64,000 nucleotides of DNA from an uncultured Gammaproteobacteria bacterium (GTDB lineage Bacteria; Pseudomonadota; Gammaproteobacteria; Steroidobacterales; Rariloculaceae): positions 77,373-141,372 of the forward strand of contig CAVUTF010000016.1 of NCBI GenBank assembly GCA_963744305.1, read 5' to 3'. The notes beneath the pieces were generated by a model. The model made no database searches. It saw only the letters and a program-made list of their open reading frames with translations, and was not told where the DNA came from. The translations under genes were made by a program, and so were the position numbers. Position 1 is the first letter of the stretch, and every line of letters starts with the position of its first letter. This document shows positions 9,777 to 59,556 of the stretch, in pieces.

Positions 9777-11425
9777 GCGCCGCGTCCGCATCGTTGCGCG
9801 TGTCGGCCGCGCTGCTGCTCGCGGCGCTGGCCGCCGTCGCTGCGGCGCAAGCGCCGCTCGCGCCGCGCGCCGAGGACGTGCCGTGCTCGCCGCTCGCCGA
9901 AGCCGCGCAGCGCGGCGACGCGCAGGCCGTGCGCGCGCTTGCTCGACGGCCGGCGACGTCGACGTCAACGCGCCGAGCCGCGACGGCACGCCGGCGCTGC
10001 ACTGGGCCGTGCGCGTCGGGGATCGCGAGACCGCGCGAGCTGCTCGATCGCGGCCGGCGCCGACGTGAACGCGCCGAATCGCTACGGCGTCGCGCCGCTG
10101 CACTTGGCGATCGAGGCCGGCGACGCGGCGCTGACGCGCTGGCTGCTCGACGCCGGCGCCGATGCCGCGGCGCGCGATCGCGCCGGCGAGCCGCCGCTGA
10201 TGCTCGCGGCGCGCGTCGGCGAGCCCGCGCTCGCGCAGGCGCTGCTCGAGCACGGCGCCGCCGTCGACGCGCGCGACGAGCACTTCGGCCAGACGGCGCT
10301 GATGATCGCGGCGCGCGAGGGCCATCTCGAGATCGGCGACGCTGCTGCATCGATGCCGGCGCCGACGTCGACGCGCAGACCAAGCGCCGAAGCAGCCGCC
10401 GCGCTTCATCCCGCCGAGCGAGTCGCCGGAGGGCCTGTCGCGCGGCGCCGGCATCATCCGCGCGGGCTGGCCCGACGGCCGCGGCAAGCGCTTTCCCGCC
10501 GGCGGCTCGAAGACGCCGCTCCTGTACGCGACGCGCGAAGGCCATCTCGACGTCGCGCGGCTGCTGATCGAGCAACGGCGCGAGCCTCGAGCTCGCCGAC
10601 GGCAACGGCGTCACGCCGCTGCTCAATGCGATCGTCAACGCGAGCATCTTTCGCGTGAACCGCACGGGCACGAGCGATCATCTGAAGATCGCGCAGCTGC
10701 TTGCTCGACGCCGGTGCGAACGTCGAACGCCGATGGACTGGTACGGCGAGACGCCGCTCTGGGCGGCCGTCGACGTGCGCAACCTCGAGCTCGGCCGCGA
10801 CGGCAACGACCGCGGCGTGCGCGACGAGGCGTTCGCGCTGATCGAGCGGTTGCTCGAAGACGGGCGCCGATCCGAACGCGCGCACGCGCGAGTTTCCGCA
10901 CGAGCGGCGCTTCATCCTCGTCGTCGTCGGCTCGGTGTCGTGGGTCGACCTCACGGGCCAGACGCCGTTCTTGCGCGCGGCCGCTGCCGGCGACGTCGAA
11001 GTCATGCGCCTGCTGCTCGAGCACGGCGCCGATCCGAACATCGCGACCTACGCCGGCACGACGCCGCTGATGGTCGCGGCCGGCGTGAACTGGGCCGTCG
11101 CCGAGACGTTCGACTTAGGCACCGAAGCGCTGCTCGAGGCCGTCAAGCTCGCGCACTCGCTTGGCAACGACGTGAACGCCGTGAACTCGATGGGCGTCGC
11201 GGCGATTCACGGCGCGGCGAATCGCGGCGCGAACGACGTCATCGAGTATCTCGCCGCGAACGGCGCGCGGCTCGACGTCGCCGACACGCAGGGCCGCACG
11301 CCGCTCGACTGGGCCGAGGGCGTGTTTCTCGCGACGCATCCGCCCGTCCGCAAGCCCGAGACGATCGCTTTGCTCGAACGCTTACTGAAAGAACGCGCGG
11401 CCGTAACGCGAGCGACGCCCGATGA
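9773..11425 (+). CDS. Exported ankyrin-repeat protein (frameshifted)
   Basis: Repeated GxTPLxxAA motifs (GVAPLHLA, GQTALMIAA, GQTPFLRAA, GTTPLMVAA, GRTPLDWA). Confidence 0.85.
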
Positions 11426-12422
11426 ACGCCCAAATGACCGACAAGATCGTATCGCCGACACGCCGTGCCGTGCTTCGCGCAACGTGCTTCGCTGCTCGGC
11501 TCGTCGCCGGCGCCGTCGCTCAGCAAGGCGCTCGTCGGCGCGCGCACGAACAAGCCGCGCCGGCGCCGTTGCCGCCGTTTCCGGGGTTCACGGCGCACGA
11601 CATCCCGACGAGCGGCGGCGTCACGATCCACGCCGTCAAGGGCGGCAGCGGCCCGCCGCTGCTGCTGCTGCACGGCGCGCCGCATGACGCATTACACGTG
11701 GCGCGACGTCGCGCCGCGGCTCGCCGAGGAATACACGGTCGTCGCCGCGGATCTGCGCGGCTACGGCGACAGCAGCCAGCCGCAGGGCTTGCCCGATCAC
11801 TCGAACTACTCGAAGCGCGCGATGGCGCTAGATCAAATCGACGTCATGCGCCACTTCGGCTTCGAGCGCTTCGCGCGTCGTCGGCCAGGACCGCGGCGGC
11901 CGCGTCGCGCACCGCATGGCGCTCGATCATCCCGACGCCGTCACGAAAGCCGTGCTTCATCGACATCGTGCCGACGTATTACCTCTACACGCACGTGACG
12001 CTCGAGTTCGTGCAGTCGTACTCTCACTGGTTCAACTATCTGCAGCCGTCGCCGATGCCGGAGAACATGCTGCTCGCGCAGCGCGACGCTGCAAGCCGGC
12101 CGGCAACGTCGCCGGCGCAGCTCGAGTACCGGCGCAGGAACGGCACGCCCGAGGGCGTGCACGCGATGTGCGAGGACTACCGCGCCGGCGCGTCGATCGA
12201 CCTGCAGCACGACGCAGCCGATCTCGACAGCCGCATCCGCTGCCCGCTGCACGTGCTCTGGGCCGCCGACGGCGCGATGGACCGGCTCTACGACGTGCTC
12301 GCGATCTGGCGCGAGCGCGGCCGCGAACGTCAGCGGCAAGGGCATGCCGGGCGGGCACAACATGCAGGAAGGCGCGCCCGAACGAGGTGCTCGCCGAGCT
12401 GCGTGCGTTTCTACATGCTTAG
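11422..12422 (+). CDS. Alpha/beta hydrolase, haloacetate (fluoroacetate) dehalogenase-like (frameshifted)
   Basis: [30 protein letters not shown] nucleophile elbow, [16 protein letters not shown]. Confidence 0.8.
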
Positions 12423-12438
12423 CGCCGGTGAATCCGAC

Positions 12439-12888
12439 ATGAGCCGCCCACTGCCGAAAATCGTGATCACGGGCGCGCTGCTCGTCGGTGCGCAGATCGC
12501 CTCCGGTCATCACTCGGTGAGCTCGAACTTCGACATGAGCAAGATGATCGAAGTGCGCGGCACGGTTGCGGCGGTGCACATTCGCAATCCCCATTCCCAA
12601 TTCGCCCTCGATGTCGCCGCGGCGGATGGCACGACCCAGCAATGGCTCATCGAGTGGTCCGACAGAAACTCGTTGATTCGCCGCAAGGTCGACATAGACC
12701 GCATCAAGGAAGGGGACGAATTGACGATCACGGCCTGGCCTAGCCGGCGTCTCGAGCACGTGGCGTATTTCGTCCGCGCGATTCTTCCGGACGGGTCGAC
12801 GTTTCGCGATTGCGGCTTCGGCGAGTTTCGCGAGGCCGTGGCGCAGTCGCGAGAGTTCAGTTGTCCGGACGCACAAGGCGGGCCATGA
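12439..12888 (+). CDS. DUF6152-family exported protein
   Basis: Signal peptide then HHS, IRNPHS, WLIE. Confidence 0.75.
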   Translation: MSRPLPKIVITGALLVGAQIASGHHSVSSNFDMSKMIEVRGTVAAVHIRNPHSQFALDVAAADGTTQQWLIEWSDRNSLIRRKVDIDRIKEGDELTITAWPSRRLEHVAYFVRAILPDGSTFRDCGFGEFREAVAQSREFSCPDAQGGP

Positions 12889-13583
12889 CGAGCATGGCGA
12901 GCTCCGTGGCTCGGATCACGGTCAGCCTAGGCGCCATCGTCGCGTTTTCGGCGGCGCCTTGCGTCGCCGCGGAGCGATCGGATCTCGATGGCGTCTGGCT
13001 TCTACTGAATACGACACCGCCCGACGACTTGCACCTTACCCCGGCCGCCGAAGCCGCTATGGCGAGCTACGATCCGTTGCGCGACGACAGCGATCTCAAG
13101 TGCGTGCCCGTCAGCTTCACGAACATCATGAACACGCCGTCGCCGCCGTTCGAGATTCGCCAGCGCGGCGATTACGTGGAGATCAACTACGAGTTCATGG
13201 ACGTGCGGCGGCGCGTGCCGCTCGATCCCAAGCTCACCGTCGACACGGCTCCACCGACCGTGCCCGAGCATCCGCACCTGGGCCGCTCGATCGGCCGTTA
13301 CGACGGCGCAACGCTCGTCGTGGACACTGCGGGACAACGCGCCGGCGCGCTCGATACGTTCACGGTCGTCGGCCTGCCGCAGTCCGATCGCATGCGCACG
13401 GAGGAGCGCTTCACGGCGAGCGGCGACGAGCTTGAAGCCGTGGTGACGCATGAGGATCCCGTCTATTACTCGGCGCCGCTGATCATGACGTACCGATTTC
13501 ACCGGCTCGATTCGCCGATTCTCGAATGGGGCTGCACGGTGGAAGCCGCGAACTACGATGAGCGGCTGCCCGAGCGGCCGTAG
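12885..13583 (+). CDS. Exported two-Cys partner-domain protein
   Basis: ATGA overlap with the upstream gene; DLDGVW, KCVP, GRSIGRYDGATLVV, EWGC. Confidence 0.7.
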   Translation: MTSMASSVARITVSLGAIVAFSAAPCVAAERSDLDGVWLLLNTTPPDDLHLTPAAEAAMASYDPLRDDSDLKCVPVSFTNIMNTPSPPFEIRQRGDYVEINYEFMDVRRRVPLDPKLTVDTAPPTVPEHPHLGRSIGRYDGATLVVDTAGQRAGALDTFTVVGLPQSDRMRTEERFTASGDELEAVVTHEDPVYYSAPLIMTYRFHRLDSPILEWGCTVEAANYDERLPERP

Positions 13584-35601: not shown

Positions 35602-36042
35602 TCAGAGCGCGGCGCGAAGCGCGGCCGCGATCTCGAGTTGCTCCGCGAGCGGGGTGAGCGGGAAATCGTGCGCGCGAAACAAACGTTTCGGATCGCTAGC
35701 CTCGTAGCGCGGTACCACGTGGATGTGGTAATGCGGGATATGTTGGCCCGACTTCACGCCGTTGTTCTGGTAGACGTTGGCGCTGATAGCGCCAAAACAG
35801 GACACCGCGGCCTGCACCAGCCGTTTCGCGAGGTGGGCCGCCGCCGCGAGCTCCGGGTCGTCCATGTCGAGAATCGTCTCGCGGTGACGCCGCGGAATCA
35901 CGAGCATCGCACCGCGCTCGAATTGCGCGCGATCGACGAACGCCGCCACGAGATCGTCCTCGGCGACGAACGCGCAGGGTTCTTCATGCGCGACATAGCG
36001 ACAGAACGAGCAGCCATCGTAGGCGTCGAGCCGAATCGGCAT
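35602..36042 (-). CDS. HIT family protein
   Basis: CSFC and HIPHYHIHVVPR histidine triad. Confidence 0.88.
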   Translation of the reverse strand: MPIRLDAYDGCSFCRYVAHEEPCAFVAEDDLVAAFVDRAQFERGAMLVIPRRHRETILDMDDPELAAAAHLAKRLVQAAVSCFGAISANVYQNNGVKSGQHIPHYHIHVVPRYEASDPKRLFRAHDFPLTPLAEQLEIAAALRAAL

Positions 36043-36179
36043 CGAGAAGCTCCAGGTGCAACCGCCCGGGGAGTATGCCAACATCTTCGCGGTCGTCCAA
36101 AAAACGCACGTGCGATGCAAACAGCACGAGCCATCAAGCGTACGCGGGGGAGAAAACCATGCAGGCGGTCGTCGACTAA

Positions 36180-37457
36180 ATGACTCGCGTCCGTGCATGG
36201 CTCGCTGCGCTCGCAGCCGGTGTTTTGGCCGCGGCGCCGGCGCTGCGTGCGTCCGCGCAATCGCAGTCGCCGGTGTTTCCCGGGCAACGCGGCGGACAGG
36301 ACGTGTTCGGCCACTACGAGGTCGTCGCGGGTTGGCCGAAGCCGCTGGCGACGGTGCCGGGCCACGAGGGCTGGACCTGGGGCGCGGGGCAGAGCGTGTT
36401 CGCCGCGAGCCCTAACCGCGTGTTCGTCTTGCAGCGCGGCGAGTTGCCCGTGCTCGCGCGGCCGCAAACGCGCGCTCTGCCTGAGCTCGGGCCGAGCATC
36501 GTGTTCCCCGTGTTCCGCTTGCCGATCCGCGACGCGACCGTCGCAAGCCCGCCCGCGGGTGGGGCCGCCGGCGCCATGCCGCCGGATGGGCTCAAAGCGT
36601 GGGAGGAGGCGGGCGGGAAGCTCGGCGTGGACGCGCGCTGGGAGCACTGCATTTTGGTCTTCGATGCGCAAGGCAACATGATCGAGGACTGGACGAAGTG
36701 GGATTCGATGCTCGCGCGGCCGCACGCGGTGTACGTGAGCCCCTACGATCCCGACGAGCATGTCTGGATCGTCGACGACTTTCGCCACGCGATCTTCAAG
36801 TTCACGAATGACGGTAGCGAGCTCGTGCAGACGATCGGCACGTACAACGAGCACGGCGCCGACGCGACGCATTTCTTTCGGCCGACGTTCATGGCGTGGC
36901 TGCCCGATGGCACGTTCTTCGTCGCAGATGGCTACGAGAACACGCGTGTCGTGAAGTTCGACGAAGACGGCAAGTACGTCACGGCTTGGGGAGAGAAGGG
37001 CACGCCGCCGAACGAGACGCGGCCCGGCTACTTCAACAACGTGCACGGCATCGCCGTCGACCCGCAGACTCGGCGCGTGTTCGTGAACGACCGCGCGAAT
37101 CATCGCGTGCAGATCTTCGATGAGAACGGCAAATACCTCGATCAATGGCGCTTCGGGGATCCGCCGTCGGACATCCACATGTTTCTGATCACCGCGGATC
37201 GATATCTCTGGGCTGCGGATCGCGGCACGAACAAGATCTTGAAGTACGACTTGAACGGCAATTTCCTTTACTCGTGGGGCACGTGGGGCGACTTCCCCGG
37301 CGGTATGTGGGGCGTGCACGGCATGAGCGTCGACCAAGAGGGCAATTTCTACATCGCCGAGGTCGACAACGGCGGAGTGCAGAAATTCCGGCCGCGCGCC
37401 GGCGCGAATCCCGATTTCCTCGTCGGCGGCCGAGCAACGTCGACTCGGAGAGACTGA
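36180..37457 (+). CDS. Exported NHL-repeat protein (peptidyl-alpha-hydroxyglycine alpha-amidating lyase family)
   Basis: FVADGYENTRVVKF, HGIAVD, DRANHRVQIF NHL repeats. Confidence 0.8.
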   Translation: MTRVRAWLAALAAGVLAAAPALRASAQSQSPVFPGQRGGQDVFGHYEVVAGWPKPLATVPGHEGWTWGAGQSVFAASPNRVFVLQRGELPVLARPQTRALPELGPSIVFPVFRLPIRDATVASPPAGGAAGAMPPDGLKAWEEAGGKLGVDARWEHCILVFDAQGNMIEDWTKWDSMLARPHAVYVSPYDPDEHVWIVDDFRHAIFKFTNDGSELVQTIGTYNEHGADATHFFRPTFMAWLPDGTFFVADGYENTRVVKFDEDGKYVTAWGEKGTPPNETRPGYFNNVHGIAVDPQTRRVFVNDRANHRVQIFDENGKYLDQWRFGDPPSDIHMFLITADRYLWAADRGTNKILKYDLNGNFLYSWGTWGDFPGGMWGVHGMSVDQEGNFYIAEVDNGGVQKFRPRAGANPDFLVGGRATSTRRD

Positions 37458-39052
37458 TGAACACCGTAGGATCGCTGACCTTGGCGGCGCGGATCGCAAC
37501 TTGGCCGGCGTGCGGTTGTCTCGTGGCGCTCGCCGCGTGCGAGCAGCAGTCGCCGGCAGCCGAAAGTGCCGCACGGGAGCCCACATCCGCGCCGGTGTCG
37601 TGTGTAAGCCTGGCCGCGATCGCACTACCGGATACCACGGTGACGATGGCCGAGCTCGTGCCGGCCGGCGGGTTCAATGGCACGGTCGCCGCAGTTCCAG
37701 GAGCACCGCCGGTCAATTACGCCGGGCTGCCTGCATTCTGCCGCGTCGCAGGCACGGTCGCGCCGGTGCCGGACTCGACGATCAAGTTCGAAGTATGGCT
37801 CCCGGCCGAGGGCTGGAACGGCAAGTTCGTCGGCGTCGGCAACGGCGGCATGGCAGGCTTCGTGTTTGAATTTGCAATGGTGGAGCCGCTGATGCGCGGC
37901 TATGCCGTTGCAGGCACCGATACGGGTCACGCTGGCGGGCCGGCGGACGCGAGCTTTGCCGTCGGTCATCCGGAGAAGCTCGCCGACTTCGGCTGGCGCG
38001 CGGTGCACGAGATGACCGTCAAGTCGAAGGCGATCGTTGCGGCGCATTACGCGAGCGCGGCGCGCCGGTCTTATTGGGTGGGTTGCTCGACTGGGGGCCG
38101 GCAGGGGCTCAAGGAAGCGCAGCGCTTCCCCGAGGACTACGACGGCATCTCGGCCGGCGCTCCGGCGAGCAATTGGGTTCCGCTGCTCGCCTACGGAGCG
38201 GGTGTTCAACGCATCAACACCGATCCCGAGCGCGCGCTGCCGCCGCCGCAACTCGCGCTGCTGAAGGAAGCCGCGATCGCGGCATGCGATGCGCGCGACG
38301 GCGTGACCGATCGTGTGGTCGAGCAGCCGCAGACGTGCGCGTTCGATCCCGGCTCGCTGCAATGCGCGACGGGTGCAACGTCTGGCTGCCTGACAAACCC
38401 GCAGGTGGAAGCAGCGCGCTCGATTTACGCCGGCGTCGTCAATCCGCGCACGGGTGAGACGCTTTTTCGGGGCCCGACGCCCGGAGGCGAGCCCGCGTGG
38501 TTCGCGTACAGCCCGGGCCTATTCCCGATCGCGGTCAATTATTGGCGAGATGTCGTATTCCGCGATCCCAATTGGGAGCCCGCAAAGCTCGACCTCGACG
38601 CGGACGTCGCGCGGGCGCAATCGACGGACACGGCCGATGTCGCGGCAACCAACCCGGATCTGAAAGCCTTCGTCGCGCGCGGCGGCAAGCTGTTGCTGTG
38701 GCACGGCTGGACAGACGGGCTGATCCCCGCGCAAAACACCATCGACTACTACGAGCACGTCATCGCGACGACAGGTGCGGCCGCCGCGAAGGACTCGGTG
38801 CGGCTCTTCATGCTGCCCGGCGTCGATCATTGCAGCGGTGGCGAGGGTACGTTCGTAATGGATGCGCTCGGTGCGATCGATTCGTGGGTGGAGAGCGGCC
38901 AACCGCCGGAGCGGATCATCGCGCGCCGGCCGCCCGACGGCGGCGCAGAGCGCACGCGGCCCCTGTGTCCGTATCCGCAGATCGCCCGTTACCGAGGCAC
39001 GGGCAGCTCGGATGATGCCGCTAACTTCGAGTGCGGGGCGCCTGCGCGATAG
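37457..39052 (+). CDS. Tannase/feruloyl esterase family hydrolase
   Basis: WNGKF.GVGNGG, TDTGH, GCSTGGRQG, WHGWTD, PGVDHC, RPLCPYP. Confidence 0.92.
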   Translation: MNTVGSLTLAARIATWPACGCLVALAACEQQSPAAESAAREPTSAPVSCVSLAAIALPDTTVTMAELVPAGGFNGTVAAVPGAPPVNYAGLPAFCRVAGTVAPVPDSTIKFEVWLPAEGWNGKFVGVGNGGMAGFVFEFAMVEPLMRGYAVAGTDTGHAGGPADASFAVGHPEKLADFGWRAVHEMTVKSKAIVAAHYASAARRSYWVGCSTGGRQGLKEAQRFPEDYDGISAGAPASNWVPLLAYGAGVQRINTDPERALPPPQLALLKEAAIAACDARDGVTDRVVEQPQTCAFDPGSLQCATGATSGCLTNPQVEAARSIYAGVVNPRTGETLFRGPTPGGEPAWFAYSPGLFPIAVNYWRDVVFRDPNWEPAKLDLDADVARAQSTDTADVAATNPDLKAFVARGGKLLLWHGWTDGLIPAQNTIDYYEHVIATTGAAAAKDSVRLFMLPGVDHCSGGEGTFVMDALGAIDSWVESGQPPERIIARRPPDGGAERTRPLCPYPQIARYRGTGSSDDAANFECGAPAR

Positions 39053-42713: not shown

Positions 42714-42901
42714 CTACTGCTCCTTGCGACGGAGGACGAGCTTCACAACGACAAACAGCACGCCGCCGGCGCCGAGTCCCACCAGGCTCGAGATCACGAG
42801 CGCCTGGGCCACTGGCAGCTCCTCGACAACGGAGCCCGTGATCATCCCGACGACACCCGCGAAGACGAGCGCCACGCAGTTCAGAAACAATTGCTCTTCA
42901 T
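42714..42901 (-). CDS. Small two-TM membrane protein, candidate immunity protein (needs one base restored near the start)
   Basis: RBS GGAGG; reconstructed MKEQLFLNCVALVFAGVVGMITGSVVEELPVAQALVISSLVGLGAGGVLFVVVKLVLRRKEQ; not called in the ORF track. Confidence 0.6.
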
Positions 42902-42916
42902 GATCATTCCTCCCCA

Positions 42917-42945
42917 GAGTGGCGGCGCTCGCGGCGCCGCCACTC
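42917..42945 (-). other. Perfect 11-bp intergenic hairpin between peptide and candidate immunity gene
   Basis: gagtggcggcg-ctcgcgg-cgccgccactc; no U-tract. Confidence 0.7.
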
Positions 42946-42954
42946 GGTCGCCGT

Positions 42955-43187
42955 TTAGAAGACGTACTCCTGCACCATATCGCTGATCAGGTAACCTGCC
43001 GCGCCGAGCAGCGCTCCGCTGATAGCGCCGACCGGAGCGGTGACACCACCGGGGACGGCCCCGGCCATGCCGCCGATGATCGCGCCCGTTATCATTGCGC
43101 CCCCGATCCCTCCCACGTCCACGCGCCCCCAACGAGCGCTGCTTCCTCGAGCGTGAGCTCCCTGATATCCGCAAGATTGCCGTCCAT
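42955..43187 (-). CDS. Double-glycine-leader, glycine-zipper bacteriocin/microcin-like precursor (one base missing near 43110)
   Basis: RBS GGAGGAG; leader MDGNLADIRELTLEEAALVGG; reconstructed core AWTWEGIGGAMITGAIIGGMAGAVPGGVTAPVGAISGALLGAAGYLISDMVQEYVF. Confidence 0.75.
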
Positions 43188-43313: not shown

Positions 43314-44666
43314 TCAACTCCGGACGCGCTTGTACGCGGTCAATCCGAGCATGAGGCCGACGTCGCCCCGCCGCGGCTCGTGAAAAAACCCGACGGAAAG
43401 TGTCGGTAGCGGCGACCGCAGGACGAGCGCGCCGTCGTCGTCGAGAACGAGCTCCACCGTGAGGCTCTCCTGCACGCCATCGCGCCCGATCGTGCAGATC
43501 AGCCGCTCCTTGTCGTAAGCGGCCGTGACGAAGCCGCCGCCGGGCCCTCGATACACGCCGGGCAGCTCGTCGAGGCGCAAGCCGCAAGGATCGCGCTCGC
43601 GCGGCGGGGATTGAGGGCTGAGATCGCGGCACACCGCGTCGACGATGAAGTCGCGCAGGTATGGCAAAGTCGCGTTCAAACCGACAGCGACGCTGAGGCG
43701 GCTGCGAGAGTCGAACCGCACGGCCGAGCACTGGCCGTGCGTGACGCCGCTGTTGCCGTGGAAACCGTCGCGAAGCCGCGCAGCGCCCAATGCGTAGGCG
43801 ACGGGGAGCCATTCGCTCAACGGACCCCCGGCCGTCGGCGGCAACCGCACTTGCGGCGTTTCGAGGAGCCGTTGCGTCTCGCGCGAGACCGGGTTCGCGC
43901 CGGAGCGCACACCGACCACCGCTTCCGCGATGGTCAGGAGATCCGCCACCGACAACGTGTACTCGGGGAACGCCGCGAGCCAAAGCGCGCTCGGACGCGG
44001 CACATCGACGACGCGTGCGAATCGGCCGGATGCAGGATCGAGCTCGTGCCGCCCCGCGCAGCCGCGCTCGGCGTAGCGCGTCGTAGGCGTGCCCGGCCGG
44101 ATTCCCAACGGCTCGAGCACCGTTTCACGGATGAGCGCGACGCCGGCTCGGCCCGTAATGCGCCTGATGATCTCGCCGAGCAAAACGGACTCCGTGTGCT
44201 CGTAGCTGAACACCGCGCCCGGCGCAAACATCTGCGGCGCGCGTTCGAGATAGGCAACCAATGATTGCCACGTGAGTGCGCGAATCTGCGGATCTAGGAC
44301 CCGCGTTCCGCAGTAGCCGCTCGTGTGCGAGAGCAGGTGCGCGACCAGCACGGTTCTGCCGTGCACGCAATCCTTGAGCTCCGGCAGGTACTCACGAAGC
44401 GGCGCCTCGAGCGCGAGCGCTGCTGAGCGCTGCAGCTCGAGCGCCACGATGGCGAGCAGCAGCTTCGTGACGCAGCCGAGATGAAATCCGTCGTCGATTG
44501 CGAGCGGGGGCGCCTCGTCGACGACTCGTGTGCCGGCTTCGGCATGGACGCGAGCGCCGCCGATGCTGACCGCCACCGCGACCCCGGGCACGCCGGTCTC
44601 CGCGCGAATGCGGGCGACGAACTCCGGGAGCGTCTCGCGTAACCGCTCGCACGATATGGGATGCAT
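43314..44666 (-). CDS. Beta-lactamase/serine hydrolase family protein with CxxK in place of SxxK
   Basis: [44 protein letters not shown]. Confidence 0.8.
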
Positions 44667-44791: not shown

Positions 44792-46658
44792 ATGCGACGC
44801 ATGCTTTCCGACAAGGTGCACTCACCGGCCGGTCCGGCGGACGACCGCGTGCGCCGTTTGTTGCGCGACGTTTTTGGCTATGCCGAATTCCGCGGCCCGC
44901 AGCATGCCATCATCGACGCGGCGCTCGCCGGACGGGATTCGCTCGTGCTAATGCCGACCGGCGGCGGCAAGTCGCTGTGCTATCAGATTCCGGCGCTGCT
45001 GCGTGGCGGCGTCGGCCTCGTCGTGTCGCCGCTGATCGCGCTGATGGAGGATCAGGTGAGCGCGCTCCGCGAGCTGGGCTAAGCGGCTGCGTTCTTGAAT
45101 TCGACACTCGACCGCACGGCGCAGCAGGAAGTGATCGGCGCTTTGCAGCGCGGCCGGCTCGAGCTGCTGTACATCGCTCCGGAGCGGCTGCTGCAAGAGC
45201 AAACTCAGGCGCTGCTGCGTGGCGTGAGACTTTCGATCATCGCGATCGACGAAGCGCACTGCGTATCGCAGTGGGGCCACGACTTCCGCGCGAGTATCTC
45301 GGCCTACACGAGCTCAAGCAGTGGTTCCCCGGCGTGCCGCGCATGGCGTTGACGGCCACGGCTACGTTGCCGACGCGCGAGGAGATCGTCGACGCGGCTC
45401 GAGCTCAAGAGCCCGCGATGTGTTCGTGAGCAGCTTCGACCGGCCGAACATCCGCTATGCCGTGCATGCGAAGACCGACGCACGTCGCCAGCTTGCGCAG
45501 TTCCTGCGCAAGCCACCGCGACGAGGCGGGCATCGTCTACTGCTTGTCGCGCAACAAGGTCGAGAGCGACGGCGGAGTGGCTGCGCGAGCAGGGCTACGA
45601 CGCGCTGCCGTATCACGCGGGGCTGCCGGCCGACGACGCGCGCCGAGCATCAACGCCGTTTCCTCAGCCGACGATGCGAGTGATCATCGTCGCGACGATC
45701 GCGTTCGGCATGGGGATCGACAAGCCCGACGTCCGCTTCGTCGCGCACCTCGATCTGCCGAAGAGCATCGAGTCCTACTACCAGGAGACGGGCCGCGCGG
45801 GCCGCGACGGCGAGCCCGCGGAGGCGTGGATGGTCTACGGCCTGCAAGACGTCGTGCAGCTCGCGCAGTTCGTCGACCAATCCGAGGCCGACGAGCAGCA
45901 CAAGCGCCACGAGCGCGCACAAGCTCGACGCGCTGCTCGGCTGGTGCGAGGTCACCGAATGTCGCCGGCGACCGCTGCTCGAGTACTTCGGCGAGGAGCG
46001 CGGCCCGTGCCTGCGGCAATTGCGACAATTGCCTGCAGCCGCCAGCGACTTGGGACGGCACGCAGGCCGCGCAGCAAGCTCTGTCCGCCGTCTACCGCAC
46101 CGGGCAGGCATTCGGCGCCGCGCACGTCGTCGACGTGCTGCTCGGCAACGCTACCGAAAAAGTCGCGCGGCATCGGCACGAGCGCGCTCAGTCGTGTTCG
46201 GCATCGGCACGGACTTCCGGCGGCGGCGTGGCGATCGTTGATTCGGCAGTTGCTGGTGCAGGGATACCTGCGCGTCGACTACGAAGGCTACGGGGCTCTC
46301 GAGTTGACCGAGCGAGCCGGCCGCTGCTGCGCGGCGAGGTGACGGTGCGCTGCGCGAGGACACGAAGCAGCCCGTCGCGCGCCCGCAAGGCGCGCCGCCC
46401 CGAAGACGGCGCTCGCCGAAGAGCACGAGCCGCTGTGGGAGGCGCTGCGCGAATGCCGAAGGCTCTCGCCGCCGAGCAGACTTGCCGCCGTACGTGATCT
46501 TTCACGATGCGACGTTGCTGCAGATGGCGGCAGCTCGGCCGGACGAGCGCGCAGCGCTGCTCACGATCGGCGGCGTCGGCCAGGCGAAGCTCGAGCGTTA
46601 CGGCGAAAGATTTCTTGAGGTGCATACGAAGCGCGGCTCGCACGCGCTCGGCCATTGA
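44792..46658 (+). CDS. recQ: ATP-dependent DNA helicase RecQ (several indels, apparent stop at 45080)
   Basis: [60 protein letters not shown] domain. Confidence 0.92.
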
Positions 46659-46715
46659 CGCTCTCGACGGGCCGACCCTATGCTGGTTCGAGGCATGAGA
46701 TTAAGGGTTGGCAGA

Positions 46716-48627: not shown

Positions 48628-49625
48628 GCGCGCCGCCGCGGAGCGCTACCGCGAAGTGGTTCGACGAGCGCCTCCCCGCGTGGCGTGCGATCGCGGATAG
48701 CCTCACCCAAATCGAGCGCGGCAAGTCGGCGCCGCCGGAACATGTGCTTGCCGCGGTGCGGTCCTATCCCGAGATCGCGCGTGATCTTGCAATCGCCCGC
48801 AACGCATCCCCGAGCGGTTCGCTAACGAAGTATCTCGAGCGCGTCTACTCGCAGCTGCACCGCTCGATCTTCCGCTCTCCCGACCGAGTCGGCCGCACGA
48901 TCCGACTCGCGTTCGAGCGCGACGCGCCCGCGGTCGCGAAAGCTCTGCGCTGGCACATTCTGGCCGTTGCGGCTCTGTTCTTCGGGGCCGCGGCAGCCGG
49001 CGCCTGGCTCGTCGCGTCGCATCCCGAGCTTGCGGCGTTGTTCGCATCCGAGGAGATGATCGACAAAGTGATGCGCGGCGAGCTTTGGACCGACGGCCTG
49101 CTCAACGTGATTCCGTCGTCGTTGCTGGCCGTGCAGATCTTCACGAACAACATCGCCGTGTCGTTGTTCGCGCTGTGCCTCGGTGTGTTGTACGGGCTCG
49201 GGACGATCTACATCATCGGCATGAACGGGATGATGCTCGGCGGCGTGTTTGCGTTTACGGCGCAGCACGGCATGGCGAAGCGGCTGTTCGAGTTCGTCTG
49301 CGCGCACGGTTTCGTCGAGCTCAGCGTGATCTTCATCGCGGGCGCGGTCGGCGCGTCGCTTGGCGAGGCACTCGCGCGGCCGGGGCACTTGAGCCGCGCG
49401 GCGGCATTTCATGCGGCCACCGCGCGCGGCGCGCGGCTGATGTTCGTCTGCGTCGTGTTCTTGGTCGGCGCCGGCGTGATCGAGGGCTTCGTGTCGCCTA
49501 ACCCAGGCGTGCCGCTGGCCGCGCGGCTCGCGATCGGGCTCGCCTACCTTACGTTGTTCGTGTTGGTGCTCACCGGCGCGCTCGGGCGCTGGGCGCGCGC
49601 GCGCCCGCTGAGCGACCGCGACTAA
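48624..49625 (+). CDS. Stage II sporulation protein M (SpoIIM)-family membrane protein
   Basis: IFTNNIAV, NG.MLG, HGFVEL, IEGFVSP. Confidence 0.88.
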   Translation: MSAPPRSATAKWFDERLPAWRAIADSLTQIERGKSAPPEHVLAAVRSYPEIARDLAIARNASPSGSLTKYLERVYSQLHRSIFRSPDRVGRTIRLAFERDAPAVAKALRWHILAVAALFFGAAAAGAWLVASHPELAALFASEEMIDKVMRGELWTDGLLNVIPSSLLAVQIFTNNIAVSLFALCLGVLYGLGTIYIIGMNGMMLGGVFAFTAQHGMAKRLFEFVCAHGFVELSVIFIAGAVGASLGEALARPGHLSRAAAFHAATARGARLMFVCVVFLVGAGVIEGFVSPNPGVPLAARLAIGLAYLTLFVLVLTGALGRWARARPLSDRD

Positions 49626-50920
49626 ACGCGGCGCTGCGCGCGCAGCAGGCGGTATGTGTTGAGCACTTTGGCGTCGAGCTCGCTCGGCCGAGCGGTCATC
49701 GCGTACGCGCCGAGGCGGCCCAAGCGCGCGACGTTCGCTCCGATCCCGCGCCTGTAATCCCGCGCGGCGAGCGCGCGATACGGATCCAGCCAATCGTGCG
49801 CGCGCCGGGACGCAAGCTCGATGACCTCTTCGCTCAAAAGGCCGACCACGAATGGCAAATGCTGCGGGACGAGGAGCTGCACGCTCTGCGCGAGCGGGCT
49901 CGCGGCGGAGGGCTCGTAGAGGTCGGTCAGAATCACCGCGAGGCAGCGATGACGCACGAGCTTGCGAACATGCAGCGCGGCGGTCAGCACGTTCGACTCC
50001 ACCGGTCGCGGCGCGAGATTCGTGAGGGCGCGACGGATGCGCACGACGGCGCCGCTGCCGCGGCCAGGCCCGAGAGTCACGATCGGAGTGTCCGCGAAGA
50101 CGATTACCCCGACCTGGTCGTCGCTCGCGACGCTAACCTCGGCGAACCGAGCGGCGAGATTCACGTAATGCGACAGCTGCTGCATTCCGTCGATCTCGGT
50201 GCGGCTCGTGCGTCCGGCATCCACCAGGACCATGACGGTAAGATGCTGATCCTCGCTGAACACACGTGTGATCAACCGCGACGTGCGCGCAGAGGCCTTC
50301 CAGTCGATCGCGCGCCGCGGGTCTCCGGCGCGGTAAGCGCGCAGGTGATTGAGCTCCTGACCGCCGCCGAGCGTAGCTTGCGCGGTCGCGCCGATCTCGC
50401 TCGAGCCGACCTGCGCATTGCGCGGGCCGAGGGTATCGGGTTGCACGACGATGCGACTCATCATGGGCAACGAGCGCGACCACCACGCGAGCTTGAGCGG
50501 CCCTTTCACACGTACCGGCAGCGCGGGCCACGGTTTTTCGCCGAGCGTCACCGGGAATGCGTCGACGCGCTCGAGCACGGCCGAATCGGGCGCGATGACG
50601 ACACTGCGCGCGGCCGGATCGCCGCGCACGCCGTCAGGAAACGTGACGGCGAGCTCCACCGCGAGAGAGCGTCGCGTGCCGTTCGTAAGTTGCAGCTCGA
50701 GCGTTTCAGTGCGACCGAGCTTCAAGGGCGGCCGCGCGAGCAGGCGCCCGGCCAATTCGAGCCGGCCGGTGATGGACAGCTCGTAGACGAGGCCGACGAC
50801 CACGACGGCAACCAGCGCGCGCCAAAACAGGTCGGCCACCAATAAATCGCTCCATAGCGCTACCACGCCGACCAGCGCCGCTAGGGCGAGCGCGAGCGTA
50901 GCGGCTGGTGTCAGATTCAC
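49622..50920 (-). CDS. DUF58 family protein (vWA-associated)
   Basis: LRAYRAGDPRRAIDWKASAR, LVDAGR, ILTD. Confidence 0.88.
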   Translation of the reverse strand: MNLTPAATLALALAALVGVVALWSDLLVADLFWRALVAVVVVGLVYELSITGRLELAGRLLARPPLKLGRTETLELQLTNGTRRSLAVELAVTFPDGVRGDPAARSVVIAPDSAVLERVDAFPVTLGEKPWPALPVRVKGPLKLAWWSRSLPMMSRIVVQPDTLGPRNAQVGSSEIGATAQATLGGGQELNHLRAYRAGDPRRAIDWKASARTSRLITRVFSEDQHLTVMVLVDAGRTSRTEIDGMQQLSHYVNLAARFAEVSVASDDQVGVIVFADTPIVTLGPGRGSGAVVRIRRALTNLAPRPVESNVLTAALHVRKLVRHRCLAVILTDLYEPSAASPLAQSVQLLVPQHLPFVVGLLSEEVIELASRRAHDWLDPYRALAARDYRRGIGANVARLGRLGAYAMTARPSELDAKVLNTYRLLRAQRRV

Positions 50921-51870
50921 GGCGTCTCGCGTGGCACCGCGACGGTGCCTAGTAGCCGTTCGAGCTCCGCGTGCGGCGACAATCCTTCGAGCACGGCATC
51001 CGGCGAGAGCACCATGCGGTGCGGGATGACCCACGGCGCGACGCGTTTGACGTCGTCCGGAACGACGAAGTCGGCCCCCCGCAGCGCGGCTTCGACGCGC
51101 GCGCAGCGCGCCAACGCGAGCGCCGCGCGGCTCGAGAGGCCAAGCGCTATGCTCGAGCTCTGCCTCGTTGCCGCGACGATATCGAGCACGTAGCCGATCA
51201 GCGCGTCGGACATGTGCACGTCGGCAAGCTCGGCTCGCGCGCGCTCGAGCACGCCGCGCTCGATGACCTCGATCGCGGCCGCGGCGGGCGTCTTGCCCGG
51301 CAAACCGTATTCGACGAGCACCCGTGCCTCGTTCTCGCGGCTCGGGTACCCCATGCGCGCGCTCAGCATGAATCGGTCGAGCTGCGACTCAGGCAGCGGA
51401 TAGGTACCCTCGAACTCACGCGGATTCTGCGTCGCAACGATCAGGAAATCCGCCGGCAGAGCGAAGCGCGTGCCGTCGACCGTGACGTAGCGTTCCTCCA
51501 TCGCTTCGAGCAGCGCCGATTGCGTTTTCGGTCCTGCGCGGTTCACCTCGTCGACGAGCACGACGTCGGCGAACAGTGGTCCTGGCCGAAACGAGAACTC
51601 GCCACGCTGCGAGTCGAACACGTGCACACCCGTCAAGTCCGTCGGCATCAGATCGGCCGTTCCTTGGATACGTTTGAATGCTCCGCCGAGCGCGCGCGCG
51701 AAGGTGTTGCTGAGCAGAGTCTTGCCGAGACCCGGCGGCCCTTCGAGCAGCACGTGCCCCGCACTGATCAGCGCAATCGTGAGCGCATGAATCACATCGT
51801 CTAGGCCGTACACGACCTGCGCGACTTGTCGATGCAGAAATCCCTCTAGCTCCCGCGCTTCCCGGGTCAT
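50917..51870 (-). CDS. MoxR family AAA+ ATPase
   Basis: GHVLLEGPPGLGKT, DEVNRAGPKTQSALLEAMEE, ATQNP, GTYPLPESQLDRF. Confidence 0.93.
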   Translation of the reverse strand: MTREARELEGFLHRQVAQVVYGLDDVIHALTIALISAGHVLLEGPPGLGKTLLSNTFARALGGAFKRIQGTADLMPTDLTGVHVFDSQRGEFSFRPGPLFADVVLVDEVNRAGPKTQSALLEAMEERYVTVDGTRFALPADFLIVATQNPREFEGTYPLPESQLDRFMLSARMGYPSRENEARVLVEYGLPGKTPAAAAIEVIERGVLERARAELADVHMSDALIGYVLDIVAATRQSSSIALGLSSRAALALARCARVEAALRGADFVVPDDVKRVAPWVIPHRMVLSPDAVLEGLSPHAELERLLGTVAVPRETP

Positions 51871-53142
51871 CCGATCGCCTCCCTTGCCTGTTGCAAAACG
51901 TTGTGCAGCCGCGCCAGGTCTACCGGGCGGCCGGTCGCTAGCCGCTCGTGGCACGTCCTCAGCTCCTCGTACGTGCTTACACCGAGCGCCGGAGTCGCAG
52001 CGAGCTCGGTCCACGGTGGATCGCTTCCCGTGCGGCAAGCCGCGTGCTCGGCGCACCTCATCGAACCATTCCGCCATGAGCATGGACCCCACGGCCAACG
52101 GGTCGAGGCGCCGCGCGAGGAACCCGCCCGCTGCCGCGAGAAAGTCGCCTTGCCGCGGCTCCGTACGTTCGCGCACCGGCGGCGCGAGCCTATTGCTCGA
52201 GCCGAGCAAGTAGACGAGCCACGCCGCGAGCAGGAACAGCCCGGTGTATTGCAAACGCCGATCGCGAAAGAATGCGCCCGCATCATAGAGGCTCGACAAG
52301 CCCTGATGCATGTCATCGAAGATCACGGCGGCGCCGGGAGCCAGATGGTGGCGGATGAGATTGGCGATGAAGTAGCGGGCGTCGCCGCTGCCCACGTTGT
52401 CGTTGGTCAAGAGCGTGCCGCTCGCGCTCAAGATGATCCGGCCGCGGCCGGAGGGCAACTGCCACATCGCATCGATACCTTCCGAGCTCTCCGTGGCTAG
52501 GCGCAGCACGAGCCGATCCGGGTCGTCGCTTTGCACTGTCCACAAATCGCTCACTTCGTCGGAAAAGCCGCGCAGCGTTGCCACGTTCGCCATGAGCGGA
52601 TGAGCCGTCGCGGGTATGAGCTCGAGCGCCGTCTCTGCCGGAATCCTCGGGCGGTTCCGGAACGCTTCCGCGGCCGCGGCATCGCTGTCGTCTTCGGCGT
52701 CCCCGCTGTGCGCCGTGAAGCTCAAGCCGGTGATCGCGCCGAGATCGGGTCGGAAGTTGGCGCCGAACGACGCCCATTCCGGCGTGTCGTCGAGCGCGGC
52801 GACGATCAGCAGCGTGTTGCCTTCGAAGACCCACCGCGCGAGGCTTGCGATCTCGTTGCGCCGCACCGGCGTCGAGCCAGGCAGCGTCATGATCATGATG
52901 TTGCCGGCCGGCGGGAGAGCGCGATCCCGCGCCGCCAAACCGTCGTCGAAGCGCTCTTGCAGGCTGACCGTCGATACGCCCTCGCGCTCGAGCCAGGTGG
53001 CGAGGCCCAGGTAGCCGTTGCGGCCCGGCTCGGTGCTCTGCGGCCGCGTAATCTCCCGCTCCGTTGGGCGCTGCACGAACAGCGCATAGACGAGCGCCAA
53101 GGCGCCAAGTGCGCCGAGCGCGGTGATGACGCGATCTTTCAC
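51867..53142 (-). CDS. DUF4350-family membrane protein (frameshift near 52025)
   Basis: N-terminal TM, S....GY..L..WL, FDDMHQG; true C-terminus in ORF 51867..52316. Confidence 0.7.
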
Positions 53143-54098
53143 GAGTGCACGCCGTCCTCGGCGCTCAAGGCGCGCACGAGCGATTCGCCGCCCACGAGGA
53201 GCTCCGCAAGCTCATGCGTGGCAGGTTGCCAACCGCCGAACGTTGCGCGTTCCGCTGCGCCTACAACAGCGGCGAACGCGACGCGCTGCTCGGCACCCAA
53301 GTCCGCCCTCGTGAGCAGCTCGCGGTGCGTCGCGCTCTGTGGGATCGGCCCTCTGCGCCGCAGGCGGTCGAGCACGAGCGCGAGCAGCAGCACCGGCTGG
53401 CGAGCGAGCGGTGCGCGTCGCACATCTTCGATCGTTCGCAAGCGTGGGAGCTCCGCGCCGAACGCTGCGCCGTCATCGGCGGCCGTGGGGGGTGCGGCCC
53501 GGCGACCGATGATGCCCGTTGCGCGCAGCTCGTTGATCGCGATCAGTGCCGTTGCGATCAGCAGCGTGATGCCGAGCAGGATCAACGCGATCGTGAGCCA
53601 GCGCTCCGAGACGGAGAAACCGTCGAGCCATCGTCCGAGCCAGCGTTCGAACCAGCCCGCGTCCTCATCAGGCGCTCTACCGAGACGCTCTTGTAACCAT
53701 TGCATCGCCCGCTCCCAGAGCGAAAGCTCGAGCGGGGGCACGAGGGTAGCCGTTTGCGCGAGCGCCGCGTCGAGCGTGTCAGCCGAGATATCGATTGCCG
53801 CGCGAGTGGCCTCGTATTCCTCGACGACTTCGGTCAGCGTGACGAAGGCGCTGCCGCTCAAATCCTCGGCCCAAATATCTGCGATGGCTTCGCCCCAGAT
53901 GCCGTCGTTGATGCCGTCGACGATCTCCGGACACACCTCGCCGAGCAGCGGCGGCTCCGCGCTGTTGTCGCCTGCAAGGCGTCGTTGCTCGATGCGATCC
54001 AGGCACTCGGCAGTGCCTTCCGGCAAGGACTGCGTGCGCGCCGCCCCGGCAGCAACGCACGCGAGGGCACAAGCCGCGACCCGCAGCCGGAACGTCAC
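53139..54098 (-). CDS. DUF4129-family membrane protein
   Basis: TM segment then SATHRELL and AERATFGG; position in the MoxR module. Confidence 0.65.
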   Translation of the reverse strand: MTFRLRVAACALACVAAGAARTQSLPEGTAECLDRIEQRRLAGDNSAEPPLLGEVCPEIVDGINDGIWGEAIADIWAEDLSGSAFVTLTEVVEEYEATRAAIDISADTLDAALAQTATLVPPLELSLWERAMQWLQERLGRAPDEDAGWFERWLGRWLDGFSVSERWLTIALILLGITLLIATALIAINELRATGIIGRRAAPPTAADDGAAFGAELPRLRTIEDVRRAPLARQPVLLLALVLDRLRRRGPIPQSATHRELLTRADLGAEQRVAFAAVVGAAERATFGGWQPATHELAELLVGGESLVRALSAEDGVHS

Positions 54099-57124: not shown

Positions 57125-57324
57125 TGCATCGTCAGTCCGTGCGTCAGAGACCAAGGATCGGATCGACGCACCTCAGAGGACCTCCAAGTCCTCCGATGGT
57201 TGGGCGGGGGTTGGCGAGCTTCTGCGGCGGCACGTGATAGCGGTCAGTTTTGCGCTGACCGTAAGGAGGACTCTATCGCACGCGCGAACTCCGATACGAA
57301 ACTCAACAATCGAGGAGAGCGAAC
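57125..57324 (+). ncRNA. Candidate structured 5' leader RNA, copy A
   Basis: Several stems conserved with 59817..60027, including pairing-preserving changes; not recognised as a known family. Confidence 0.55.
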
Positions 57325-58599
57325 GTGACAAGATCAACAGTTCTTACGAGCCTTGCCGCCTGCACTATCCTGGGCTGGGCGGCGTCCGTCGAAGCAAACG
57401 TCGTCGCCGAGTGGAACGCGCTGGCGGTGCAATGCACGGGTGCGCATCGAGGCGCTCCGGGGCAAGTGCTCGACATCGCCATCGCGCAAGCAGCCGTGCA
57501 CAACGCCGTGCAAGCGATCGAGGGGCGCTACGAGCCCTACCTGGCCGGCGTTTCGGCGACGGGTGGCGAGTCGAGGGCTGCCGCCGCCGCGGCGGCGGCC
57601 TACAACGTGCTCGCAACGGTCTGCCCCAACTCGGTGGCGACGCTGCTCGCCCCCGCGTTCAAACCTTATCTCGACGGCAACGATCCGGGGCTCGCGGTGG
57701 GCGCCGCCGCCGCCACGCAGCTGCTCGCGAAGGTCCGTCCGGCGCCGGCAATGACGTTCATCGGCGGGACCGGCGCGGGTGAATGGCAACCACAACCGCC
57801 CGCAACGAATATGGCATTCGTGTACCTGGCCACGACCGAGCCTTTCACGATGACATCGCCCACGCAATTTCTTCCAGGGCCTCCGCCAGCGATGACCAGC
57901 GAGAGGTACCTGCGCGATTACAACGAAGTCAAGGAGCACGGGAACATCGAAAGCCACCCTCCGGCCCCTGCGTGTCCCGCACCGCGGGAGACCGATATGG
58001 CTCGCTTCTGGGGGGGCAACTTAATCTTGCAATGGAACGACACTGTTCGGAACATCGCGGTAGACCGGCAGCTCTCGATCGGAGAGACGGCGCGGCTGTT
58101 GGCGCTCGCGACATTTGCAGGGGCCGACGCGCTCATAGCCGTTTGGGACAGCAAGATCCACTACAATTTTTGGCGGCCGATCGCCGCCATTCGCCGCGCC
58201 GACGAGGATCCTAACGCCGAAACCGAGCGAGACGTCGACTGGATACCATTCATCCAGGGGCCGCATTTCCCCCCGGGGTCGCAGACGCCTGCCTATCCCG
58301 ACTATGTCTCAGGCGCAAACGGCGTGACCGGAGCGTACGTGACGATCCTGCAGATGTACTTCCGCACGAATGCGTTCAGGTTCGAGATCTACAAAGGGAC
58401 TGCACCTTCGGTCGCGATTTGCACTAACCCACGCACATTCCGCCGCTTCTCGGATGCCGCACAAGAGGTCGTAGACGCTCGGATCTTGCTGGGCATTCAC
58501 TTCCGCTTCGCGGACACCGAGGCGCGCAGGTTGGGTGCCCGCGTGGGTTTCTGGACGTTCACGAACGCACTGCGGCCGGTTGGCCACGGCGGCGAGTAG
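57325..58599 (+). CDS. Exported vanadium-dependent haloperoxidase / PAP2-superfamily protein 1
   Basis: KIHYNFWRP, TPAYPDYVSGAN, ARILLGIHFR. Confidence 0.85.
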   Translation: MTRSTVLTSLAACTILGWAASVEANVVAEWNALAVQCTGAHRGAPGQVLDIAIAQAAVHNAVQAIEGRYEPYLAGVSATGGESRAAAAAAAAYNVLATVCPNSVATLLAPAFKPYLDGNDPGLAVGAAAATQLLAKVRPAPAMTFIGGTGAGEWQPQPPATNMAFVYLATTEPFTMTSPTQFLPGPPPAMTSERYLRDYNEVKEHGNIESHPPAPACPAPRETDMARFWGGNLILQWNDTVRNIAVDRQLSIGETARLLALATFAGADALIAVWDSKIHYNFWRPIAAIRRADEDPNAETERDVDWIPFIQGPHFPPGSQTPAYPDYVSGANGVTGAYVTILQMYFRTNAFRFEIYKGTAPSVAICTNPRTFRRFSDAAQEVVDARILLGIHFRFADTEARRLGARVGFWTFTNALRPVGHGGE

Positions 58600-58616
58600 G
58601 ACTATTGAAACCAAAC

Positions 58617-58644
58617 GGGCAGGCGGTTCGCCTGCCCCTTTCTT
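58617..58644 (+). terminator. Intrinsic terminator-like hairpin
   Basis: gggcaggcg-gtt-cgcctgccc followed by ctttctt; paralogous hairpin at 61775..61797. Confidence 0.65.
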
Positions 58645-58651
58645 ACCCCCA

Positions 58652-58739
58652 TCAATTCTGGTATCCGGGCTTGCAATTGTAGGGCTCCGGATCCCAGGGG
58701 CTGCGGACGAACAGCTCTTTCTGGGTGAAGGGTTCCTTT
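58652..58739 (-). pseudogene. 3' tip of a DUF6152-fusion gene (copy of the end of 61861..62847)
   Basis: Encodes FTQKELFVRSPWDPEPYNCKPGYQN*, identical in protein to the intact gene. Confidence 0.8.
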
Positions 58740-58740
58740 C

Positions 58741-59556
58741 ATTCACCACGACATCTGGGATTGGGATAACCCGACCTCGCCGATCCTGCTCGACGTCGTC
58801 GTCGACGGCCGGCCGGTCGGTGCCGGCGTCCGACGTGCCGTTCGAGTGGACGTCGCCCACTCAGCCGTTTCCGACGAAGCCGGCCGCCTACGATCGCCAA
58901 GGCGTCCTCGAGAGCGGCTTGATCGACTTCACTCCGGCGCTCAAGGCCGCCGCGCTGGAGTCCGTGAAGGGTTTGCGGATGGGCCGATGTTCACGCCGTC
59001 GTCGCTGCTCGAATCGCCGGACGGCGCCCTGGGCACGCTCGTGCTGCCGCACTACGGGGGCGGGGCGAACTGGGAGGGCGGGGCGGCGGATCCGGAAACC
59101 GCCATGCTGTAGCAGGCGACCGCTCGGATGTTCGCTATCTGTTCGTCAACGGCAAAGCTCCGAAGCCGATAGGCCTGCCGCTCGTGAAGCCGCCATGGGG
59201 ACGGATCACCGCGATCAACATGCACACCGGCCAGCATGCGCGGATGGTCGCGAACGGCGAGACGCCCTACGCGTGAAGAATCACCCGGCGTTAAAGGCTG
59301 GAACATTCCGCGCACGGGCAAGCCAAGCCGTGCATTGCTCCTGGTGACCAAGACGCTGCTGATCGCCGGCGAAGGCTACGGCGGCGCGCCGATGCTACGC
59401 GCGCACGACAAGGCAACGGGCGAGATCATCGCCGAGATTCCATTGCCGGGCGGCCGCGAGCGGCAAGCCGATGACCGCTCGTGGCGGGCGGCAAGCAATA
59501 CATCGTGCTCGCAGTCGGCCGGGAGACGGGAGCTCGTGGCGTTGGCCTTGCCATGA
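58741..59556 (+). pseudogene. Truncated, internally deleted PQQ glucose/quinate-type dehydrogenase
   Basis: [46 protein letters not shown]; N-terminal half absent, in-frame stop and gaps. Confidence 0.8.

Follow-up and report, generated by a model that had tools for sequence, protein, structure and literature searches.

Two small genes lie side by side on the minus strand between positions 42,714 and 43,187 of the window, by which we mean the whole 64,000-nucleotide stretch of DNA analysed here. Each is one base short of a single open frame, and each has intact homologs in related genomes; both reconstructed genes are real. The first encodes a 77-aa precursor with a Gly/Ala-rich core and the second a 62-aa protein with two transmembrane (TM) segments and a basic tail. 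Together they probably represent a one-peptide class II microcin-like bacteriocin and a candidate immunity protein, for which we infer the steps of cleavage, export, killing and immunity from the sequences.

The two reconstructed genes

The precursor gene (42955..43187, minus strand) starts at ATG 43187, located 5 nt downstream of a Shine-Dalgarno-like GGAGGAG. This motif can be read directly at 43199-43193, where an earlier note on this DNA had seen a strong ribosome-binding site in front of a minus-strand leader. The frame opened by the ATG reads MDGNLADIRELTLEEAALVGGAWTWEGSGAQ and ends at a stop at 43094-43092 on the minus strand, and the Gly/Ala-rich core continues in the -1 frame, which is open to the TAA at 42957-42955. 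The gene measures 233 nt, compared with the 234 nt required for 77 codons and a stop. Its expected length of 77 aa rests on these two overlapping frames and on intact homologs. A search with the core returned three intact 77-aa proteins, P0047 (94% identity), P0048 (85%) and P0049 (87%), along with one 37-aa fragment, so that the 77-aa precursor which the note had obtained by restoring one base near 43110 is confirmed. The leader of P0047 is identical to that of the window. The frame break (43105..43110, one base short) is placed by a related-strain contig carrying a single additional base behind 43106 (X6 record 17), and it falls on the codon for residue 28, which varies between I and L among P0047-P0049.

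The leader, or signal part, spans 22 codons ending in V-G-G-A (43122..43187) and was recognized by pattern match. The core of the class II microcin signal pattern, Rx[IL]x9G[GAS], as given in PMC12219008, is found in all 49 family proteins tested and also in the leader frame of the window. In these 49 proteins the dipeptide before the cut is always G-A (SGA in 43, GGA in 6), and the divergent relatives G004 and G008 have G-G at the same register. Since G-A closes the signal pattern in 49 of 49 members, the predicted cut by a C39 peptidase is most likely after G21-A22 and before W-T-W. Cores in the family start with either WTW, as in the window, or FTW. PMC12219008 prints MRTLTLNELDSVSGG as the signal of MccV, and the consensus of the family leader, MRELTxxETxLVSGA, closely resembles it. 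Two details of the earlier description change with this cut: the core is 55 aa long instead of 56, the cut being one residue later, and the leader that had been called double-glycine does fit the class II microcin signal pattern while having G-A, not G-G, at the cut itself.

The second gene (42714..42901, minus strand) starts at ATG 42901, 7 nt downstream of a Shine-Dalgarno-like GGAGG (42909..42913), again read directly from the sequence. It is one base short as well, with 188 nt vs the 189 nt required. The frame from ATG 42901 gives MKSNCF and then a stop, and the two-TM ORF runs in another frame to 42714 (58 aa if counted from TTG 42890). A search with this ORF returned two intact 62-aa proteins, P0051, which matches the 57-aa query at 100% identity over 98% of its length (56 of 57 residues aligned), and P0052, which is 88% identical to the window ORF. 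These homologs and the family alignment A3 support an expected length of 62 aa, and the second ribosome-binding site and the 62-aa two-TM protein with a basic tail are thus present as previously claimed. The missing base is a different one from the A proposed before: a related-strain contig has a single additional base behind 42889 (X2 record 9), and this strain reads G between 42890 and 42889 (MKSNVF...). This second frame break (42889..42890, minus strand) lies at codons for residues 5-6 that vary, V/A and I/F, between P0051 and P0052.

Between the two genes is a GC hairpin (42918..42944, minus strand), also noticed earlier, with a perfect 11-bp stem (arms 42944-42934 and 42928-42918), a CGCGA loop and no U-tract. 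It folds at -29.3 kcal/mol (z -2.84), and only 2 of 200 shuffled sequences fold equally well. An equivalent GC stem of 11-12 bp was found at the same position in all 5 loci folded. A terminator scan did not call the hairpin a terminator, and a promoter scan returned 0 sigma-70-like sites.

Several observations show that the reconstructed genes are real and exist intact in close relatives. First, G017, a genome of the same genus, contains two intact copies of the pair, in which the peptide is 75 aa long when counted from MDG and the TM protein is 67 aa long; together with P0047-P0049 and P0051-P0052 this answers the proposal to look for intact homologs in related genomes. Second, strains 97-98% identical to the window have one extra base at each of the two breaks; the support is one contig per break, at a depth of 3-4 and from related strains only, and each is weak alone. 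A low-support X6 joint from 42775 to 43067 (depth 2, side 20) was disregarded as probably foreign. Third, when codons were compared among loci, the median pN/pS was 0.37 over 136 pairs of the peptide gene and 0.45 over 21 pairs of the TM gene; for the leader it was 0.20. The pair is under purifying selection, and chance ORFs are excluded because pN/pS is as low as 0.20-0.45 and a homologous family exists.

Origin of the frame breaks

It is likely that both one-base gaps are consensus errors of the assembly at strain-variable codons, because the assembly is full of indels, as exemplified by recQ and rpoC. The recQ gene (window about 44800-46700, plus strand) was aligned to three same-genus orthologs, and indels absent from those relatives were counted. 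The recQ of the window has at least 10 insertions and about 7 deletions of one base each, mostly outside homopolymers, and its substitution identity of 77% is at the level seen among the relatives (75-78.5%). This pattern is the signature of consensus error rather than decay, since about 17 indels are present without any surplus of substitutions. Around recQ, 1.6 kb from the peptide locus, the consensus is locally of poor quality. In the same genome rpoB is intact, and rpoC (G000 C40:320162-320842) passes into another frame for model positions 545-759 (~215 codons) and then back. This excursion is due to two compensating indels, with the long ORF staying open, and it is not credible as biology because the gene is essential. 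Frame switches were also surveyed roughly with the help of relatives' intact ORFs: over 16.8 kb of aligned orthologous coding DNA (16 rows, some of which cover the same gene) there were 11, of which 4 are in recQ and were detected via antisense ORFs. The window assembly is indel-prone. Moreover, both breaks fall on codons that differ between strains, which are likely points of failure for a consensus built from mixed strains. When sequencing runs were searched for the words of the window, no run contained more than 0.44 of them.

Elsewhere in the window, same-strand ORFs with high GC3 overlap or abut each other at 11407-13583, 36180-39052, 49622-53211 and 57265-59112; on visual inspection, some of them resemble pieces of a PQQ-dependent dehydrogenase. 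These overlapping sets suggest further frame breaks in the window.

The main competing explanation is that the breaks are real: the pair in the window would then be an orphaned toxin-immunity pair in very recent decay, both of its genes being pseudogenes, like the exporter gene. This is an unlikely reading, albeit one with several points in its favor. A frame break is present in each of three functionally linked genes (the peptide gene, the TM gene and the C39-ABC exporter gene), while the adjoining 1.4-kb porin and beta-lactamase-fold genes are intact; the pair is separated from the exporter cluster in this genome; neither break is at a long homopolymer; and, at the surveyed rate of about 0.5 errors per kb, the a-priori chance of two errors within 420 nt is only a few per cent. 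However, the same assembly has indels in rpoC and recQ and further frame switches, and other damage is not seen in the pair, in which the TM protein is 100% identical to P0051 and the leader is the same as that of P0047. Programmed ribosomal frameshifting, or a reading of the pieces as separate or chance ORFs, has next to nothing to recommend it apart from the fact that each piece forms an open frame in the unedited window sequence: it is contradicted by the homologs, every one of which is a single uninterrupted ORF, a slippery heptamer is not seen at either break, and two independent frameshift sites would be needed.

Peptide family, gene neighbourhood and exporter

A word search assembled 46 clusters into the peptide family. 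All of them are named 'hypothetical protein' in their sources and none has a Pfam hit. Among representatives at 50% identity, a profile of the family matched 119 at E<=0.001, including 28 at E<=1e-10. No NCBIfam model fitting the peptide or the TM protein was found in a search of that collection, and the locus had rightly been described as unannotated. Among the genomes of the GTDB family searched, 10 of 61 carry the peptide family. According to the record titles, the relatives come from an uncultured soil/rhizosphere gammaproteobacterial lineage. In another genus of the family (G061 C30:168752-171114 and G073 C21:119787-120978), 2-3 tandem profile matches are spaced about 1.1 kb apart and could be multi-peptide loci. 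The 4103-aa protein P0059, probably a repeat protein rich in Gly, also matches the peptide profile, in 30 separate stretches.

The predicted mature form of P0047 has 55 aa, a mass of 5352 Da, a pI of about 4 and a GRAVY of 0.96; it is anionic and free of Lys and Arg. The sizes of the mature peptide and of the 77-aa precursor are within the range of class II microcins (mature peptides of about 5-10 kDa). As previously claimed, the core is Gly/Ala-rich with GxxxG repeats: in P0047 it has 5 GxxxG and 14 [GAS]xxx[GAS] motifs, with 40% G+A and 60% G+A+V+I. The AF2 model (pLDDT 80.5) consists of a leader helix and of core helices at 25-43 and 51-75, and a Foldseek search of this model against PDB gave 0 of 42 matches at E<=0.001. 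A complex prediction for the core peptide and the two-TM protein scored 0.02, from which the model gave no answer either way.

Comparison with Pfam points weakly but consistently to known bacteriocin families. The MccV model (PF17508) is touched by 15 of the 31 A1 members, with a best E of 0.023, far below the cut-off, and Bacteriocin_IIc (PF10439) by 1 of 31 (E 7.7e-4). P0047-P0049 score 10.7-12.8 bits vs a cut-off of 27, and the window-type proteins reach E 0.22 at best against Bacteriocin_IIc. When 10 remote members were sampled from the 119, 7 of them matched Bacteriocin_IIc (E 6.7e-6 to 6.9e-4) and 5 matched MccV, all scoring just under the cut-offs (up to 26.4 bits vs 27.1); the gathering cut-off of MccV or Bacteriocin_IIc was reached by no member scored. 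In the ESM Atlas, the neighbours of P0047 are Blp/Bacteriocin_IIc clusters. Judged by these resemblances, the unnamed peptide would belong to an already known class, as a class II microcin-like, one-peptide system.

The gene neighbourhood was compared in 24 related loci, 5 from species representatives and 19 from metagenomes. A C39-peptidase ABC exporter is encoded directly upstream of the peptide gene in 20 of the 24 loci (where the contig reaches that far). It has the Pfam domains Peptidase_C39, ABC_membrane and ABC_tran, and its best NCBIfam match is an NHLP-type bacteriocin exporter, below the cut-off. A carrier-protein gene precedes the peptide gene in 21 of 24 loci. Further upstream are genes for an MFS transporter, an acyl-CoA-synthetase-like enzyme, two beta-lactamase-fold proteins and a divergent HlyD-type adaptor. 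The 394-463-aa membrane protein of these clusters was also considered as a Dlt-like (MBOAT) protein, a reading that was rejected, as it is the MFS transporter. Downstream of the peptide gene, a two-TM gene with a basic tail (61-68 aa) is present in 15 of 22 loci by ORF listing and in 2 more by tblastn; two loci lack it, and another four contigs end before it could appear. This partner is also found in the divergent loci of G004, G005 and G008, and the identity between subfamilies of the two-TM family (A3) is 20-47%. The window and the loci examined each contain a single peptide gene.

The order of the genes varies. In G008 and G005 it is HlyD, ABC, peptide and two-TM gene. In G004 it is beta-lactamase-fold gene, peptide and two-TM gene, which matches the window, and in G049, a closed genome from another genus, all the components are present in a different order. 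In L025 and L026 the order is nadC, peptide and two-TM gene. The peptide gene and its two-TM partner appear to move as a module. On these two short contigs (L025:1-885, L026:1-1262) the pair directly follows nadC (nicotinate-nucleotide pyrophosphorylase, identified by eye), and carrier and exporter genes are absent from them.

The window itself holds only the beta-lactamase-fold gene, the peptide gene and the TM gene of this cluster. The exporter had been supposed to lie outside the window, and an ortholog is indeed present on another contig of the same genome (G000), C47, in two frames with 64.7% and 57.1% identity and with a Peptidase_C39 score of 125 bits. An HlyD ortholog (50.6% identity) is on contig C5, and there are 17 TolC-family (OEP) matches in G000. 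The search for a C39 ABC transporter with HlyD and TolC partners, as had been proposed, thus detected all three types in this genome. The peptide, exporter and adaptor genes are on three separate contigs of the assembly. Orthologs of the carrier protein and of the acyl-CoA-synthetase-like enzyme were not found in this 82%-complete assembly. The C47 exporter ortholog (35886-38091, minus strand) is split into two frames near 37426 and has no adjacent HlyD gene; a gene that resembles ParA on visual inspection lies upstream of it, and an ORF of 722 aa follows downstream. In the exporter ortholog, we take a Cys in ...AECGIAC... and a His in ...SHFVVL... to be the catalytic residues.

Proposed function and relation to known microcins

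The proposed mechanism is as follows. The 77-aa precursor would carry a 22-residue double-glycine-type signal, and a C39-peptidase ABC exporter, acting with an HlyD-type adaptor and a TolC-family channel, would cut after Gly21-Ala22 during export. The peptide released would be 55 residues long (about 5.35 kDa), acidic and very hydrophobic, with a predicted helix-loop-helix structure and GxxxG glycine zippers, and sensitive relatives might be attacked by its insertion into their membrane. The 62-aa two-TM protein, presumably co-transcribed and with its basic ends predicted to be cytoplasmic, could shield the producer, and the GC hairpin probably tunes the ratio of the two products.

Alternatively, the peptide may be exported by a C39 transporter and yet be non-killing. 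It could be a signal, part of the envelope or an amyloid-like glycine-zipper protein attached to the surface, and the TM protein could serve as its receptor or chaperone. Its only Pfam match over a cut-off is to Gly-zipper_Omp (PF13488), at 25.9 bits vs 25 for the window core ORF; the intact proteins stay below this cut-off (19.0 bits for P0047, 23.1 for P0048 and 22.8 for P0049), and the match is probably compositional. A lipoprotein signal is absent from the peptide. The anionic and extremely hydrophobic nature of the peptide would suit such a role, and C39 exporters are reported to carry non-toxic peptides too, for example RaxX. However, the closest recognizable families are bacteriocins, the tight pairing with a fast-diverging two-TM gene is the usual toxin-immunity pattern, and the patchy spread of the family among the genomes searched suits an accessory weapon. 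A non-killing role appears improbable on this evidence.

As a microcin-like bacteriocin, the peptide can be compared with several known systems. Among the class IIa microcins, microcin V (exported by CvaAB-TolC) also has a small Gly-rich precursor, a small inner-membrane immunity-like gene and, as in the clusters of the relatives, a C39-ABC exporter with an HlyD-type adaptor; its signal has the same register of R, L/I, nine residues and G-[GA]. The differences are that most family members add 7 residues before the 15-residue signal, that the Pfam MccV scores are so low, that the window pair is unlinked from its exporter and its host is an uncultured soil gammaproteobacterium, and that many relatives add genes for acyl-CoA-synthetase, MFS, carrier and CxxK beta-lactamase-fold proteins. 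The Blp-type peptides of PF10439 are similar in having a GG leader followed by GxxxG-rich helices. In contrast to them, the present family is Gram-negative, which means that an adaptor and an outer-membrane channel are needed, and it scores below the 27.1-bit cut-off.

The CdzC/CdzD-CdzI system of Caulobacter consists of contact-dependent glycine-zipper bacteriocins exported by type I secretion, as described in PMC5380434. The peptides in that source are very hydrophobic, contain glycine zippers and have a high content of Gly and other small residues, and they come with a small membrane immunity protein; all of these features have parallels here. However, the Cdz toxin is described there as two proteins of 86 and 84 aa, and CdzI as having three predicted TM segments, whereas the present family has one peptide gene per locus and a two-TM partner. 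The likeness to CdzC/D suggested earlier therefore extends to composition and secretion logic and stops short of a two-protein system. Finally, the class IIb (siderophore-modified) microcins provide a precedent for clusters with post-translational peptide-modifying enzymes, according to PMC12219008. Their Ser-rich C-terminus and glycosyltransferase/esterase set are not seen here; the accessory genes here encode an acyl-CoA-synthetase-like enzyme, a carrier protein and Cys-type beta-lactamase-fold proteins.

The upstream neighbour of the pair in the window (43314..44666, minus strand) is one of these beta-lactamase-fold proteins (Pfam Beta-lactamase, E 1.4e-35), with CxxK in place of SxxK: it reads G-C-V-T-K where solved PDB homologs read G-S-x-T-K. 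Orthologs are present in the peptide clusters of G017, L021, L022, G004 and G049, the one of L021 being 54.6% identical to the window protein. Besides the window, the CxxK protein is located at L021:1657-3054, L022:1676-3019, L045:6981-8321, L046:5688-7052 and L008:1476-2975. All 6 orthologs compared keep Cys65 and Lys68, and CxxK is also present, as GCLAK, in a paralog at L008:2942-4552. No signal peptide is apparent in the CxxK protein, and its scores against every NCBIfam beta-lactamase model are far below cut-off. In the relatives (L019-L042, for example L021:4382-9907) the upstream set comprises the acyl-CoA-synthetase-like enzyme, MFS, C39-ABC and carrier genes. The carrier proteins have a DSL-type attachment motif, (M/L)DSLT, in 22 of 22 cases, and the same gene set is kept in G049 (L046) despite the reshuffled order between the two genera. 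The invariant CxxK, the DSL carriers and a gene set that survives reshuffling suggest, on sequence grounds, that some family members may be modified before export.

One speculative form of this idea, which we consider rather unlikely as it stands, is that the full clusters of the relatives make an acylated class II microcin and that the window contains a pared-down version, keeping the CxxK enzyme, the peptide and the immunity gene. The acyl-CoA-synthetase-like enzyme would load an acyl or aminoacyl group onto the dedicated carrier protein, and the cytoplasmic CxxK protein would accept the group by transthioesterification and hand it to the peptide before C39 export. A link between the carrier gene and the conserved penultimate Cys of the main family was considered and rejected: L025 and L026 keep this Cys without a carrier gene, and G049 has the carrier gene with the Cys absent. 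Our literature search did not find the full cluster type (a microcin with a carrier and an acyl-CoA synthetase, or acylated RiPPs with C39) or a natural CxxK (Cys-nucleophile) beta-lactamase-fold enzyme, which leaves the absence of either one unproven.

The locus also illustrates in detail how small genes that vary between strains escape gene callers when a metagenome-assembled genome contains indel errors. Class II microcins have recently been argued to be widespread (PMC12219008), and, if the assignment proposed here is correct, an unannotated family from uncultured soil/rhizosphere Gammaproteobacteria would be added to them. The predicted cut site, mature peptide and partner gene are concrete enough to be testable in existing E. 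coli secretion assays. The company of a carrier, an adenylating enzyme and a Cys-type beta-lactamase-fold protein may point to a new route of microcin modification.
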